Below, in pieces: positions 33,395 through 52,766 of a stretch of 64,000 nt of DNA (the stretch's first letter is position 1; each line of letters opens with the position of its first letter). A model generated the notes under the pieces. The model ran no database searches. It was not told the DNA's origin and worked only from the letters and a program-made list of their open reading frames with translations. This DNA comes from an uncultured virus (IMG/VR IMGVR_UViG_3300008952_002242). Its lineage: Duplodnaviria; Heunggongvirae; Uroviricota; Caudoviricetes. The stretch spans positions 1 through 64,000 of IMG/VR virus record IMGVR_UViG_3300008952_002242; one strand, given 5' to 3'. A program made the translations under genes and the position numbers.

Positions 33395-33441
33395 TCCATA
33401 TGTGAATATACATAAAAAAACAATACAAGTCAAGACTTTTT
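33395..33441 (-). promoter_or_regulatory. phage early promoter cassette copy
   Basis: AAAAAAGTCTTGACT-N17-TATATT; related copies near 35005, 37820, 38595, 44610, 44780, 44980, 45097, 50770, 51040, 53270, 61938 and 63102. Confidence 0.75.
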
Positions 33442-34223
33442 TAAATAAATTTATCCACTTCTCTTGATTCTTCAACTTCTATTTTTTGAATTTCTGCGGT
33501 GTTTATAGTGTCGGCAGGATAGGGATATAGTTTATGTTTTAGTGTTGATTTATATAGTCTATTTTCTTTTTTGTTTCCGATGAAGTAAAGATACCTATGT
33601 TTCTCTGCTTCCTTCTTCAACCAAAATGTTTTACCAATTTTCTTAATTAAATTTTTGGGTGCGGCTGAACCATATAAAGAATAAACGGTTCTGCTATGTA
33701 TCCATTCCCCATCTTCTGTTAATCTCAAACTGAATGTTGGCGCCATCTGTATTTCACCACACCCTTGATATAACCAATTAGTTGCTTGATAAATTTTACC
33801 TGTATGATTTTGTTCAGGATCTGCATATGATATTAATACTTTAATGTTTGGTGCATTTAACCTCAACCAACTAAACATAGCACCCAATACAAATGATTCT
33901 ATATTTTTACCATAACCATCATCAATATAAAGTCTTGTTAACTCTAATAGATTTGTTGTCTCTAATCCTATGTCTTCACTAAAGATAGAACCTAGCACTC
34001 TTCTACCAACTGGAAAACCTAGAGTCATACAACCTATCAATGTTTCTTTAGATTCATTTTCAAAAAATGGATGTGGAGAATCATCTTTATAAAAGATTCC
34101 TAATGCATATCTACATGAAGAAGATTTATGAGAATAATGTTTTTCAATAATTATATTCTTAGCTTGCTTCTTGGGTATTTGTTGCAAATATACTTTTGAT
34201 TTATCTACATATTTTTCTTCCAT
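33441..34223 (-). CDS. mom: Mom-family DNA modification (GNAT-like) enzyme
   Basis: IIEKHYSH, LELTRLYI...KNIESFVL, ISYADPEQNHTGKIYQATNWLYQG, KHRYLY. Confidence 0.8.
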   Translation of the reverse strand: MEEKYVDKSKVYLQQIPKKQAKNIIIEKHYSHKSSSCRYALGIFYKDDSPHPFFENESKETLIGCMTLGFPVGRRVLGSIFSEDIGLETTNLLELTRLYIDDGYGKNIESFVLGAMFSWLRLNAPNIKVLISYADPEQNHTGKIYQATNWLYQGCGEIQMAPTFSLRLTEDGEWIHSRTVYSLYGSAAPKNLIKKIGKTFWLKKEAEKHRYLYFIGNKKENRLYKSTLKHKLYPYPADTINTAEIQKIEVEESREVDKFI

Positions 34224-34254
34224 ACCATACCATTTGGTTATCGTTCAAATTTTG

Positions 34255-34326
34255 AGCGGTGTTAGGGAATCGAACCCCACCTTCTTCGTTGGAAACGAAG
34301 TGTATCACCTTTGATACTTCCACCGC
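34255..34326 (-). tRNA. tRNA-Gly(TCC), atypical
   Basis: GCGGTGG...CTTCG-TTTCCAA-CGAAG...TGGGG-TTCGATT-CCCTA-ACACCGC-T; G7.A66 mismatch, A at position 8, no encoded CCA. Confidence 0.8.
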
Positions 34327-34333
34327 AAATATC

Positions 34334-34397
34334 TGGGTGATTTGGTTGTTTTTTAAGTCATAAAATAGTGGAGACTAAAAATCGGTTAAACCACCCA
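34334..34397 (-). ncRNA. 64-nt two-stem hairpin RNA
   Basis: TGGGTGGTTT/AAATCACCCA outer stem (G.U on - strand), TTTTTAGTC/GACTTAAAAA inner stem. Confidence 0.5.
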
Positions 34398-34402
34398 AAC
34401 TT

Positions 34403-34458
34403 TATGAAGATTTCAACCCTAATACGGCTGACCGAAGTTTGTTAATGAAATCTTCATA
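34403..34458 (-). ncRNA. 56-nt hairpin RNA
   Basis: Perfect 13-bp inverted repeat TATGAAGATTTCA/TGAAATCTTCATA enclosing 30 nt. Confidence 0.5.
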
Positions 34459-34459
34459 C

Positions 34460-34878
34460 TTGGAAATTAAGGAGGGATGTGAGCCTGACATCTCACAAAT
34501 GCCTTTGATCTTGAATGATTTTAATACTCATGCAATCAACCCAATCGGTTATGATTGGTTACTTCTAAAAGTGGTTAACTTCGTTGAAGTGGACACAACT
34601 CCTGTCAATTCACCTTATCCATCACTCACGGATTATTAGGTAATAAAGTAAGAATCTCAGCTTTTACACCACGCTCTTACAATGAGCCAGAAAAGTAGTT
34701 TCTTTTCTTTAAAGACAAATCTTTCGGTTCACAATTGTTATTGATTCTTTTCACTCACATTCGAGCAATAGAGTCTACCACAGACGAACTTACTAAACAA
34801 TAACTCCCTTCTCTAGAAAAGAGTTTATTCTGTCAATCCCACACGAAGGTAGCAAGCCTTCGCGCTTCCTATTTCCAA
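34460..34878 (-). ncRNA. large (about 419 nt) structured non-coding RNA, family unassigned
   Basis: Ends pair (TTGGAAAT/ATTTCCAA); about 10 local hairpins with G.U pairs favouring the - strand; no - strand ORF of 60 aa or more; lies between a promoter and a tRNA. Confidence 0.65.
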
Positions 34879-34893
34879 ATTGTCAAAAATCTA

Positions 34894-34965
34894 TGGGTTG
34901 ATGCCAGAAGTATCAGCAGTACCGATACTAGCAGTGGTATGGATAGGTATACCCTAATCAACCCA
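34894..34965 (-). ncRNA. 72-nt three-way-junction RNA
   Basis: TGGGTTGAT/ATCAACCCA closing stem; internal GGTAT/ATACC and AGTATCGG/CTGATACT hairpins. Confidence 0.5.
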
Positions 34966-34978
34966 AATCTTATATCAT

Positions 34979-35008
34979 AATATAAGTATTTTTACCTATA
35001 CAAGTCAA
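34979..35008 (-). promoter_or_regulatory. early-type promoter driving the ncRNA/tRNA array
   Basis: TTGACT-N18-TATATT preceded by an A-tract. Confidence 0.7.
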
Positions 35009-35026
35009 GACTTTTTTTATTAATTA

Positions 35027-35641
35027 TTACCATAAAATATATGCACCATCATCAAAATTTTCATATTCTTTTATATCAAAATTTTCTTCTTTTAATATTG
35101 GTCTTGTCAAACACAAAAATTCTAAATTTATAGCTACTCTTGGAACATCCGGATCATTACATGGATTTGGTTTATGTAAAAACCAACCAGGCATTAAATA
35201 TAAATGTTTTTCTAAAGGTAAAAACTTTTTCTCCATACCATCGTCATCCATAATAGATAAAGTACCACTATCATCAGGTATTTGCGTATAATAAACTCCA
35301 TTTATAGTAGTTTTTGATGTGTGTCTATGCCAAACAGAATCATATCTTTTTCCAGTACATATATAAGAACAAGCTAAGGTTTTTTGTGGCCTTGGTAAAT
35401 GTTTATCTATATTTCTAAACCATACATAACATTCATCTTTAAATATTTTATATAATTTCTTAACATTTTCAGTATCAACCATACGTGTATTATAATGAAA
35501 AGCATCTAATAATTCTCGTTCTTTTGTATCACTTTCAATAGCTTCTATTGTTAATATTTTATTAAATTCATCTGTGATTTTTTCAGATAAATTTATTTCA
35601 ATTAACCATGGATTTCCACCGAATACTAAATTATTAGTCAT
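35027..35641 (-). CDS. 2OG-Fe(II) oxygenase (TIGR02466-like)
   Basis: WHRH...NGVYY, PGWFLHKP, RVAINLE. Confidence 0.75.
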   Translation of the reverse strand: MTNNLVFGGNPWLIEINLSEKITDEFNKILTIEAIESDTKERELLDAFHYNTRMVDTENVKKLYKIFKDECYVWFRNIDKHLPRPQKTLACSYICTGKRYDSVWHRHTSKTTINGVYYTQIPDDSGTLSIMDDDGMEKKFLPLEKHLYLMPGWFLHKPNPCNDPDVPRVAINLEFLCLTRPILKEENFDIKEYENFDDGAYILW

Positions 35642-36215
35642 TAGAAAATAAACCTAAAACCTTATTAACATAAAAATTGTCAGATATATAAGCATAACTA
35701 TATGTTCTTGTAATAGTTGGACCATGACTATAGCTTGTTAAAGCATAATACCAATCATCGCCAGAGTTATGATATAAATCAGATAGATACATTATACCAA
35801 CAGTTACATTAACATATGGGTCATATAAATCATCTTTAGGTGTTTTGAATTCACCATATGCTGTTTCAGGTTTTATTTGCATTAATCCAATAGCACCACT
35901 CTTTGATATTGCTTTGTGGTTCCAACTTGATTCGGTCATTATAACTGATTTAGCCAGATCATAAGGTACAGTATATTCATCACATAAGGCGTAAATATAA
36001 ATCAATACATGCTTTAGTTTGGATTTATTTAATGATGAATTGATTATATCAGCATCTTCAAAAAAATTTGGTTTGGTTTTTTCTACTTCAATTAGATTAT
36101 CAATTTTACGAACTACAGTTCTTATTGGAACTTCATACATATTTTCCATATAGAAAACTACTGCAAGAAAGGCGGTAAGTATTCCCATTATAAAAGTTGC
36201 TCTGGGGTTATTCAT
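35634..36215 (-). CDS. membrane-anchored lytic transglycosylase (SLT domain)
   Basis: VIMTESSWNHKAISKSGAIGLMQIKPETA...LYDPYVNVTVGIMYL...ALTSYSHG; N-terminal TM. Confidence 0.9.
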   Translation of the reverse strand: MNNPRATFIMGILTAFLAVVFYMENMYEVPIRTVVRKIDNLIEVEKTKPNFFEDADIINSSLNKSKLKHVLIYIYALCDEYTVPYDLAKSVIMTESSWNHKAISKSGAIGLMQIKPETAYGEFKTPKDDLYDPYVNVTVGIMYLSDLYHNSGDDWYYALTSYSHGPTITRTYSYAYISDNFYVNKVLGLFSND

Positions 36216-36669
36216 TATTATCTCCTGTTTTATGTTTCATATCTTTTTTAGTTTTTTCTTTATGACATTTTCTACATAAAGTCTGTAGATTACCTTCTTC
36301 CCAATAACTCCAATCTATTTGATTGGTTGATAAATCTTTTTGTTCATATAATGGTTTGATGTGATCTAATTGCCATTTTGAATCATACTCACCACAATTA
36401 GCACATTCACAATAATCTCTCTTCTTTATGTATTTCTTTATATGCTTTTGATTATAGATAAAAAGATATCTTTCACTACAATCAGGATGCCAACTAGCTC
36501 TATTGTTTCTTCTACCATATTCATCATTAATAACATCACCACACCACCTACATACACCTCTTTCCTTTACATCATAATAGGAATCTGGTTTAGGTGGATA
36601 GCGATAATCATTTTCGTGATAATCAAATTTGCGTGTTTTTTTCCCAAGAGTTTTTCTTATCCTTGGCAT
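36208..36669 (-). CDS. HNH endonuclease
   Basis: RDYCECANCG...QLDHIKPL...NLQTLCRKCHKEKT. Confidence 0.88.
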   Translation of the reverse strand: MPRIRKTLGKKTRKFDYHENDYRYPPKPDSYYDVKERGVCRWCGDVINDEYGRRNNRASWHPDCSERYLFIYNQKHIKKYIKKRDYCECANCGEYDSKWQLDHIKPLYEQKDLSTNQIDWSYWEEGNLQTLCRKCHKEKTKKDMKHKTGDNNE

Positions 36670-40178: not shown

Positions 40179-40451
40179 TTAATTTATATTAGATGTTTCT
40201 AAAACTTCACCCAATACTAACGCATATCTATTGGGTACAGATTGCCTATCAATAGTCAATTCTTTATATTCTACTTTCATAGTAGGTGAATTTGAATTAT
40301 ATCCATTTCTAAATACAATAACATTATAGTCTTTATTTTCTAATCGTGGTGTCCAATAGTCAGATATATCTCTATACTCTATTGTTTTAGTACCATTTAG
40401 TATTTCATCAAAAAATTGTTTTTTTAATGTTAGTGTTAAAGTATTATTCAT
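40179..40451 (-). CDS. ASCH/PUA-like domain protein
   Basis: LTLKKQFFDEILNGTKTIEYRDISDYWTPRL...FRNGY (GxKxxExR). Confidence 0.85.
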   Translation of the reverse strand: MNNTLTLTLKKQFFDEILNGTKTIEYRDISDYWTPRLENKDYNVIVFRNGYNSNSPTMKVEYKELTIDRQSVPNRYALVLGEVLETSNIN

Positions 40452-41230
40452 TTTCTACCACCCTTATCCATTGTTGTTGAGAATTTTTTCAATTTATCAT
40501 ATGCTCTAAATTTCTTTAATTTTTCTTGTTTAGTCCATTTCATCTTATCAAATACTTTCATTCTCATATGTTGTTTAACTATAAAGTAAATATCAACTGC
40601 ATTACCACCCATTGATTTTATCCACTTAGCATATTTCTTAACCAACTTAGCTGAAACATGCTCATGCCCATAGTGTGTCCAAAATCCTTTCTTTGGATGA
40701 AGTGCCGCTGTTTCATCTTTACCTATATCATGAAATAATGCGGCAAGTGCGAAATCTATATCACCTGTTTGTAATGCTCTATTAGTTACAGCTATGGTAT
40801 GTTTCAATACATTACCTTCAGGATGGGCATCCCTTCTTTGATCATATTTTTTTAAATTGTAAACTCTTTTTTTTAAATCGATCGGCAATGCGTTATAAAT
40901 ATCTTTAAATTTTGTTGGTTTGATTCTTGCTGCAATCTCACCTAATTTACCTATTTTTTCTTTTTCTGCTTTAGACATTTTAGTCCAATGTTTTTGAATA
41001 CCACCACCAAACTTTTTCAAATTCTTATCTCTTGTCTTTTTCAACATTACAAAGATTATATGATGTTTCTCTCTATCGGAAAGATTAGGTGGCATCAATT
41101 GTTTTTTTGGACCTTTACGAACTGAAGGTGCTTTTAGTTTCTTTTTAAGTGCAGTAATCTCTGCCTTGGTTAAAGGTTTACCCATCCTTTTAGTCCATTG
41201 TTCAAATAGTAAATCTATTAATTTAATCAT
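40448..41230 (-). CDS. HD-domain phosphohydrolase (CCA-enzyme HD-like) with MIKLIDLLFE leader
   Basis: HPEGNVLKHT...AALFHDIGK...HYGHEHVSA...VKQHM. Confidence 0.8.
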   Translation of the reverse strand: MIKLIDLLFEQWTKRMGKPLTKAEITALKKKLKAPSVRKGPKKQLMPPNLSDREKHHIIFVMLKKTRDKNLKKFGGGIQKHWTKMSKAEKEKIGKLGEIAARIKPTKFKDIYNALPIDLKKRVYNLKKYDQRRDAHPEGNVLKHTIAVTNRALQTGDIDFALAALFHDIGKDETAALHPKKGFWTHYGHEHVSAKLVKKYAKWIKSMGGNAVDIYFIVKQHMRMKVFDKMKWTKQEKLKKFRAYDKLKKFSTTMDKGGRK

Positions 41231-41547
41231 TTTAGTGCCTTCAACACTTTATTTACATTTTGACCATCTCTTTTAACCATATCAATATCTTCAGGATTTT
41301 TTAAAATCTTTTTAATTGCATTTTTTTGTGATGAAGATAATTTTTTTAACTTACCATACATCCCAAGTAAATGTTCAGGTGATGTTCCAATATCTCTAAT
41401 AAAATGTCGTGGTCCCAAATCAAATCCTATTGTACGCCATTTACCTTTCATAAACTTATCAAATACCAAATTTACATATTTTCCATCTGAACTAATATAT
41501 GTATCACCTATATTAACCTCTCTTAATAAATCTTTTAATTTTATCAT
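41227..41547 (-). CDS. protein with MIKLKDLLRE leader
   Basis: Start at ATG 41547 (TAATG coupling). Confidence 0.7.
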   Translation of the reverse strand: MIKLKDLLREVNIGDTYISSDGKYVNLVFDKFMKGKWRTIGFDLGPRHFIRDIGTSPEHLLGMYGKLKKLSSSQKNAIKKILKNPEDIDMVKRDGQNVNKVLKALK

Positions 41548-41918
41548 TACCAATCCCAACCCATTATAGTTTTTTTAGTTTTCCAATTATGTGCTACTTC
41601 AGCAGGTGTAAATTTTTTATCTACCTTCGGTTTCCAAAATGAATAATACTCTTTTTTAGGCCACCCCTTTTTAGCATATTTACTTCCACCCATCACCATC
41701 GTTTGCCAATCTTTTACTAAATTGCCATCTTCTACCCAAGCATGCCTATATCTTTTATTATTAGACACATGTTTATTCTGAACAGTACCATAGGTAATCT
41801 TCATCTTCTTATTTGCTTGTTTATTATCTTGATTTATAATTCCCATTTTCCAAACATAAGAAAGACACTCACCACAAGCTATTGTTGCTTCAATCAATAA
41901 CTCTTTTAATTTAATCAT
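41547..41918 (-). CDS. protein with MIKLKELLIE leader; possible Cys-His-Asp fold
   Basis: CGEC...HAWVEDGNLVKD. Confidence 0.7.
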   Translation of the reverse strand: MIKLKELLIEATIACGECLSYVWKMGIINQDNKQANKKMKITYGTVQNKHVSNNKRYRHAWVEDGNLVKDWQTMVMGGSKYAKKGWPKKEYYSFWKPKVDKKFTPAEVAHNWKTKKTIMGWDW

Positions 41919-41968
41919 TATCTCTTCACTTTATGTCTATCATCATCCGCCGGATGTTCTGAATGTCC

Positions 41969-42640
41969 TCATCTCTCTTGCACAGGTTTAAGTCTATTCT
42001 TTGCTAATATAGATACAAATTTTATTTTAGCATTGGCTAATTGTTTTAATTCATCTTTTGGTAGCTTATCTAAAAACTTAACAAATTTCTTATAAGTGGG
42101 TGAAGATGGATTCATTTTACTTAGAGTACTATATGCGTGCCGCATAATCTCTATTTGTTCTTTTGAGAACTTACCTTCATTTACGGATTCACCAATTACA
42201 AATTCAGTACCCATTCTTGTTTTTTTAAAATTTTTTATTTTTAGTTTTGAATTTAAATTTTTATTTGCATCTTTTAATACATCTCCCATACTATCTTGAT
42301 ACATATAACTTTTCATTTTTAAAAAGAAATCTTTACCTTTTGGTTTCATAGCGATTAAAGCTTTTGTACCAATACCAAGATTATCTAAAGACATATCTAA
42401 TTGATATTTTAAATCTGATTTATTTACCTTTTCATTTACGGATTCTCTTATATTCTTTTTTATCATATCTAATTGTAATTGCATGTAATCTACAACTTCT
42501 AGAAAATCCTCATCATTTTGTTGGTTATGATATTTTTTTAGATTTTTTGTTTCTCTATCAAGGATTTTAATAAACTTTTTACTTTGATTCCAACCCTTTG
42601 GTGTTATAGCTTCATTTAATAAATCTTTTAACTTAATCAT
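41969..42640 (-). CDS. multi-segment protein with MIKLKDLLNE leader
   Basis: Internal ESVNE repeated twice. Confidence 0.7.
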   Translation of the reverse strand: MIKLKDLLNEAITPKGWNQSKKFIKILDRETKNLKKYHNQQNDEDFLEVVDYMQLQLDMIKKNIRESVNEKVNKSDLKYQLDMSLDNLGIGTKALIAMKPKGKDFFLKMKSYMYQDSMGDVLKDANKNLNSKLKIKNFKKTRMGTEFVIGESVNEGKFSKEQIEIMRHAYSTLSKMNPSSPTYKKFVKFLDKLPKDELKQLANAKIKFVSILAKNRLKPVQER

Positions 42641-52667: not shown

Positions 52668-52695
52668 AAAAATCCTAAATACAAATATATTTTTG

Positions 52696-52766
52696 AGCGG
52701 ATGGTCGGAATCGGACCGACATCACCAGCTTGGAAGGCTGGGGTAATACCATTATACAACACCCGC
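52696..52766 (-). tRNA. tRNA-Gly(TCC)
   Basis: GCGGGTG...CCAGC-CTTCCAA-GCTGG...GTCGG-TCCGATT-CCGAC-CATCCGC-T; T-loop TCC instead of TTC; no CCA. Confidence 0.88.

Follow-up and report, generated by a model that had tools for sequence, protein, structure and literature searches.

A marine phage RNA with two manA cores whose L5 and L7 loops are complementary across domains

INTRODUCTION

The manA RNA (RF01745) was listed in 2010 as probably cis-regulatory and as a probable riboswitch (PMC2864571), and it has remained an orphan candidate ever since. Its consensus in that paper has one junction, and the L5:L7 and L8:L9 pairings are drawn as pseudoknots (PMC2864571). Cryo-EM structures report these contacts, as L5-L7′ and L8-L9′, between the subunits of a manA pentamer, with PDB entries 24QD/24QE and 23NR (bioRxiv 10.64898/2026.07.01.735769). 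The constructs were single-core RNAs of <200 nt; their pentamers build decamers and the 60-mer manA_A0F1, and one variant also forms an octamer. These cages were made in the test tube, and the main text of the preprint does not show their formation in cells (bioRxiv 10.64898/2026.07.01.735769). GOLLD and ROOL are summarized there as phage-associated RNAs, large and ornate, whose multimers consist of RNA only. Here, we describe an RNA of the manA family in a new architecture, with two cores in one chain.

RESULTS AND DISCUSSION

Identity of the RNA

The window (the whole stretch of DNA analyzed, 64,000 nt) was taken from a 131-kb virus record, G000, of which it makes up the first 64 kb; the record is estimated to be 70% complete. 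The sequencing runs that best match it are from seawater, and among 20 proteins compared with PHROGs the only named families were a baseplate wedge, an ATPase, and a glucosyltransferase. The RNA, of which G000 carries one copy, lies at 34460–34878 on the minus strand (as are the features given below at 33441–35641), in an ORF-poor gap between an ORF at 35027–35641 and a tRNA-Gly(UCC) at 34254–34326.

A preliminary description of this DNA had proposed a large, highly structured stand-alone noncoding RNA here, either a distant GOLLD/ROOL relative or a new class, and had seen no sign of a tmRNA or RNase P. In the covariance-model searches that it suggested, the models of GOLLD (RF02032), ROOL (RF03087), OLE, RNase P, and tmRNA had no match up to E 10, and ARAGORN found no tmRNA.

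At the gathering score, Rfam returned tRNAs alone in the window and no other family. At a relaxed E-value the manA model matched twice in tandem (9.6e-9 and 1.2e-4), with 40.2 bits for the 3′ half and 26.4 bits for the 5′ half. The window copy is below the gathering threshold of 55.2 bits, and a one-core model is unable to span two cores. Over 15 loci, the 3′ half was matched in all (39–72 bits), reaching at least 55.2 bits in 7, and the 5′ half was matched in 6. Matches to snoR97, Thr_leader, and sraA were judged to be due to chance.

The 5′ hairpin, the closing helix P2, and the GAAUAA motif of manA are all present in this RNA, and the four-way junction P4-P5-P6-P7 occurs twice. It shares with manA the 5′ hairpin, P2, GAAUAA with a 3-bp P3, the four-way junction, the L5/L7 loop codes, P8, and P9, and both are of marine phage origin (PMC2864571). 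It differs in length, 419 nt against about 200, in the second core nested within P8, and in having helices P0, P2′, X, and Y and loop L6B. The span from GGGAG to CUCCC is 164–177 nt in 95 copies of canonical manA, whereas full-length double copies measure 418–437 nt and have two cores in 17/17. That 34878–34460 holds two manA cores is, in our judgment, close to certain. The RNA is thus a member of a known family in a new architecture, and with this membership the claim of a new class falls.

Homologs and fold

Homologs were found by pattern scans of viral contigs and metagenomes. The metagenome scan yielded at least 44 homologs among the 118 loci listed, and 74 of the 118 were not homologs. 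In the viral scans, chance loci were dropped (L096, then 4/9 and 1/10 in two further scans), and of 26 further pattern matches those on contigs also bearing the RNA were kept. Cellular genomes gave 33 pattern matches and no full homolog, with three HMM matches to the motif only; blastn against named phages gave two matches at E 0.7, as expected by chance. We obtained 17 distinct full-length copies, which split into two groups about 50–60% identical to each other; L125, exactly the window sequence, was not counted. The near-duplicates L127 and L186 were omitted from the 15-row alignments of phage homologs, which are 50–97% identical and in which the long-range helices covary.

The predicted folding energy of the RNA was −112.8 kcal/mol, better than 100/100 shuffles (z −2.77), and all eight homologs tested, the window included, had fold z-scores from −1.7 to −4.6. 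RNAalifold predicted 52 pairs from the 15 aligned sequences, with changes on both sides in 29. A model of 94 pairs was paired in 98.7% of cells in the eight group I sequences, against 41–47% when slid, with shuffles at 0/500; relatedness may inflate this control. In proposing a large, highly structured stand-alone RNA, the preliminary description was right.

The two domains

Domain A (34726–34834) comprises P3A, GAAUAA, hairpin P3aA, and the junction P4A/P5A/P6A/P7A; it carries the 26.4-bit manA match. Domain B (34534–34641) comprises P3B, P3aB, and the junction P4B/P5B/P6B/P7B, and it aligns colinearly to canonical manA cores, without rearrangement and with 91.6% of cells paired. Domain A is strongly diverged, as its Rfam match in 6/15 indicates. 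A core model (R1) was built from domain B and canonical cores, with no domain A in training. It found domain A in 13/15 loci, with one off-target match in 25 kb; the single matches were weak (E 0.005–0.49) and consistent in position across loci. Sequence-level likeness between A and B was not detected in the window (z 1.3), and a comparison over the 15 loci matched in one, at E 0.36. Domain B is without P8 and P9 and domain A is without L8, and there is one hairpin X and one L9 per RNA.

Secondary structure outside the cores

The topology is nested: P0 at the ends, then P1, P2, the junction of domain A, and P8; within P8 stand hairpin X and P2′, and P2′ closes hairpin Y and the junction of domain B. 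P9 and then the 3′ strand of P2 follow downstream. Domain B is thus nested inside a helix of domain A.

The end-to-end helix P0 (34878–34871 with 34467–34460) has 6–11 bp in 15/15, with slight covariation (permuted partners were as good as the cognate in 308/5000). It agrees with the closure that the preliminary description had drawn, and the ends of the RNA are probably those given there (34878 and 34460). P1 (34841–34865), the manA 5′ hairpin, is supported by the comparative alignment and the group I model. The 5′ strand of P2, GGGAU (34836–34840), pairs with 34478–34474 in 15/15 and encloses both domains. P8 (34711–34717) pairs with 34506–34500, about 200 nt away, and encloses domain B; P2′ (34682–34687) pairs with 34531–34526 and closes that domain. 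P8 and P2′ differ in sequence between the two groups and remain paired, and for each of them 0/5000 permutations matched the cognate score, in a test that ignores relatedness. Hairpin Y (34648–34680) was placed as P1 in short rows of the 2010 alignment. P9 with its loop L9 (34479–34496) is supported by the alignment, the permutations, and the group I model.

L8 of manA is replaced by domain B, and the loop of hairpin X (34689–34708) is its stand-in and can pair with L9. This pairing has 5–6 bp with an A-U/G-C switch in 8/9 copies of groups Ib and II, and is thus strong in 8/15. It has 3 bp in 5/6 of group Ia, is weakest in the window, and is weak in L220 too. Again, 0/5000 permutations matched the cognate, with relatedness ignored.

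Ten helices had been named in the preliminary description, and comparison backs eight of them: P0, P1, the hairpin after GAAUAA, P5A, ACC/GGU around AUCC/GGAU, ACUUC/GAAGU, CCAAUC/GAUUGG, and P9. The strands of GCUC/GAGC (34687–34672) pair instead within P2′ and hairpin Y, and in place of GACA/UGUC a GGA/UCC hairpin with the loop GUUGUG covaries. A pseudoknot between L9 and UUGACA, also proposed there, had no covariation over the 15 sequences (2154/5000 permutations were as good). The UUGACA strand is taken up in P3A, as GACA/UGUU in 8/8 group I sequences, and P3A is CCU/GGG or ACU/GGU in 7/7 of group II. The L9:UUGACA pairing can form in the window and its five closest relatives, and an alternative fold in this subgroup is possible. 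Two other loop pairings were rejected: L7A:L9, for which 4929/5000 permutations were as good, and L6A:L7A, which by eye is broken in L216, L220, and L241.

Loop complementarity across domains

L5A is GUGGU (34777–34781), with UGGU in 15/15, and its predicted partner is L7B or L6B. The tetraloop L7A, AACA in the window (34736–34739), is GACA in 11, AACA in 3, and GAUA in 1 of 15 (RAYA overall), and its predicted partner is the hexaloop L5B, GUUGUG (34594–34599; GUURUR over the 15). The hexaloop L7B, AUAACC (34547–34552; mostly RUAACY), is the predicted partner of L5A. L6B, UAACCA (34572–34577), is invariant in 15/15 and would be an extra or alternative partner of L5A. L6B caps P6B and mimics the L7 of canonical manA, which lacks a corresponding loop; L6B may be a third docking site.

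In the canonical register of three core pairs, A5:B7 and B5:A7 were each complementary in 15/15, whereas A5:A7 and B5:B7 were complementary in 0/15. In this register, the manA trait of an L5 complementary to the L7 of the same core is thus absent, and complementarity is found across the domains only, unlike in single-core manA. In canonical copies of the cyanophage type, L5 is UGGU and L7 is ACCA in about 83–84/95, according to a loop caller. All four B5:A7 pairs form in 4/15. In the L220 lineage, a G>A change in L5B occurs together with a C>U change in L7A and the pair is kept, as one event in one lineage. Permutation tests give the kisses no support (344/5000 were as good for B5:A7 and 5000/5000 for A5:B7), because the loops are nearly invariant. 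In other registers, a shifted B5:B7 has five pairs in 14/15 and A5:B6 has four pairs in 15/15.

From these loops, we regard it as likely that the L5/L7 kisses are crossed between the domains. As far as the sequences tell, the complementarity of L5A with L7B and of L5B with L7A would be compatible with pairing in cis or in trans.

Expression

Contigs from four ocean metatranscriptomes of four studies were compared with 33400–36399. In all four runs, the listed RNA-library contigs were confined to 34464–34878. One of them, 364 nt long and the same as the window in sequence, spans the two domains and stops at 34878. This hints at a discrete RNA with the proposed ends, 34878 and 34460; we take the extent as a hint, not proof, because it comes from RNA-library contigs only. 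RNA contigs were not seen over the upstream module, the tRNA, or the ORFs, and their absence there is not evidence of silence.

Genomic setting

The RNA is preceded by a promoter-like TTGACT-N18-TATATT (34979–35008), with a predicted start near 34972. This motif occurs nine times in G000, always on the minus strand, and a 20-nt copy of the stretch lies at 33423–33442; the promoter scan was not enriched over shuffles (17 vs. 17.8). Right after the promoter-like site, an optional three-way-junction module of 65–95 nt (34894–34965) is present in 8/15 homologs (the window, L207, L222, L153, L158, L221, L169, and L241). Both-side changes occur in 7 of its 21 pairs, its junction bases are invariant, and it has no match in Rfam; it is possibly a separate small RNA motif. 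In L256 and L211 another structured-looking stretch, 160 nt upstream of the RNA, stands in its place. A U-rich motif, UUUGAHAA (34881–34889), lies just 5′ of the RNA in 15/15 and is a candidate start or processing signal.

Downstream of the RNA, an extra 13-bp hairpin (34403–34458) is found also in L207. It is followed by a stem–loop (34334–34397) with an inner AGUY/RACU helix and a YYCAC loop, a motif present in 15/15 at 22–83 nt after the RNA and U-tailed in L216, L196, and L185; it is a candidate terminator, processing signal, or partner RNA. Some homologs have a promoter-like stretch on one side and a hairpin with a U tail on the other. A position in a potential 5′ UTR is a trait of manA; in the window, hairpins and a tRNA follow the RNA, and the neighbors vary among homologs: tRNA-Gly(UCC) and Mom are found in 2/15, and the remaining loci have SLT-like ORFs, ORFs of other kinds, or a new promoter. 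The Mom-family DNA modification gene (PF25680, 33441–34223) lies directly behind the tRNA-Gly, in the same order as in L132. G000 has two tRNAs only (34254–34326 and 52695–52766), both tRNA-Gly(UCC). At 40448–42640 of the window, several adjacent ORFs start with a near-identical MIKL(K/I) peptide.

A proposed assembly and its alternatives

The loop numbers and direction of the preprint were mapped onto the double RNA by position, as we infer them. The joining loops of the manA cages, L5-L7′ and L8-L9′ (bioRxiv 10.64898/2026.07.01.735769), then have counterparts in it. Were a subunit to reach the same neighbor with both its L5 and its L8, a fusion of neighbors would make L8:L9′ covalent. In the internal step from A to B, the P8-P2′ link would replace L8:L9′ and L5A would kiss L7B; in the external step from B to the next A, L5B would kiss L7A′ and hairpin X would kiss L9′. 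A fusion of ring neighbors would account for a domain B without P8 and P9, a domain A without L8, and the crossed loop code. We therefore suggest that the RNA may be a covalent copy of two neighbors in a manA ring, assembling into even-membered rings. Strict alternation of A and B would allow even rings only, of two or three RNAs with four or six domains and not five, so that the crossed tandem, unlike the manA pentamer, could not close a five-membered ring. Closed oligomers would then have a symmetry other than that of the pentamer-based decamers and 60-mer.

Taken as a whole, a phage RNA of two manA cores, with two ring neighbors fused and their loops crossed, seems to us on balance the best explanation. 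That a duplication and fusion froze two ring subunits in one chain with mutually specific loops is a tentative proposal, and we hold an oligomer of the double RNA in the cell to be about equally conjectural. The weakest step is the role: in infected cells the RNA would most likely serve as a structural scaffold or a decoy, present in abundance, and not as a gene switch. The variable downstream neighbors and the free-standing look of some copies favor such a stable RNA over a switch.

The same loops could be read in parallel, with L5B on L7B in the shifted register and L5A on L6B; the contacts of each domain would then stay separate, and a double manA could also form odd rings, five-fold ones included. 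The five B5:B7 pairs in 14/15, the four A5:B6 pairs in 15/15 with both loops invariant, and the G>A change of L220, which improves B5:B7 too, all suit such a code. It would nevertheless leave the conserved L7A unpaired and the C>U change in L7A of L220 unexplained, and the two single-domain GUUGUG rows among the 36 examined in the 2010 alignment have GACAU as L7, not RUAACY (PMC2864571); we consider it unlikely. Every partner loop is present in one chain and P0 closes its ends, so both crossed kisses might also be intramolecular, giving a closed pseudo-dimer, a compact and stable RNA with no higher assembly, much as the pseudoknots drawn in 2010 for these kisses lie within one molecule (PMC2864571). 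The cryo-EM structures report these kisses between subunits (bioRxiv 10.64898/2026.07.01.735769), and a two-membered ring would need a far sharper turn than one of four or five members, which makes a self-contained monomer quite improbable.

A cis-regulator, such as a riboswitch in tandem whose two aptamers act on a downstream gene, would agree with the listing of manA as a probable riboswitch, probably cis-regulatory (PMC2864571), and with the SLT-like ORF downstream of several homologs. Against this, the downstream neighbors vary, a separate hairpin intervenes in 15/15, the RNA contigs end at the limits of P0, and no alternative terminator or ribosome-site helix was seen; the probability is very small. 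Chance likeness to manA in a distant GOLLD/ROOL relative or a wholly new class, as the preliminary description would have it, deserves hardly any credence. The window has no Rfam match at the gathering score other than tRNAs, and the length and the neighboring tRNA resemble GOLLD. GOLLD and ROOL differ in fold from the double RNA and do not match it up to E 10. The tandem matches, the 3′ half matches, the colinear core of domain B, and the presence of five 3′ halves in the manA alignment (PMC2864571) all speak for manA, and the 7/15 homologs above the manA cut-off largely refute this alternative.

The oligomer assays suggested in the preliminary description are apt. Inter-subunit loops kept, yet crossed, over about 50% divergence are the expected trace of selection on assembly. 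The crossed tandem makes the biological reality of manA cages directly testable, and the double RNA provides the test: a predicted even-ring stoichiometry, rescue pairs, and a natural double mutant in L220. If the proposal is true, it would be evolutionary evidence for manA assemblies in infected cells, a natural case of an RNA cage that exchanged five-fold symmetry for an even one (two- or three-fold), and an RNA counterpart of duplication–fusion in protein oligomers. The loops would also offer orthogonal kissing pairs to RNA designers.

Relation to the published manA alignment

We found no description of a two-core manA in a literature search that lay outside most subscription journals, and the word “tandem” is absent from the main text of the preprint (bioRxiv 10.64898/2026.07.01.735769). 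The Rfam manA family contains truncated halves of a longer RNA: 5 of the 36 manA rows examined in the 2010 alignment cover just the 3′ half of the long form found in group II, and they are gapped at P2 for this reason (PMC2864571). The family alignment may need revision. Its single-domain rows offer precedents for both crossed pairs: in two from Photobacterium the loops GUUGUG and GACAU, the B5 and A7 types, occur together, and two marine ones combine a pentaloop on a 4-bp stem with UAACCG or GUAACU, the A5 and B7 types (PMC2864571). We also observed a recurring hairpin after many single-core manA RNAs, for example in L012, L013, L016, and L022.
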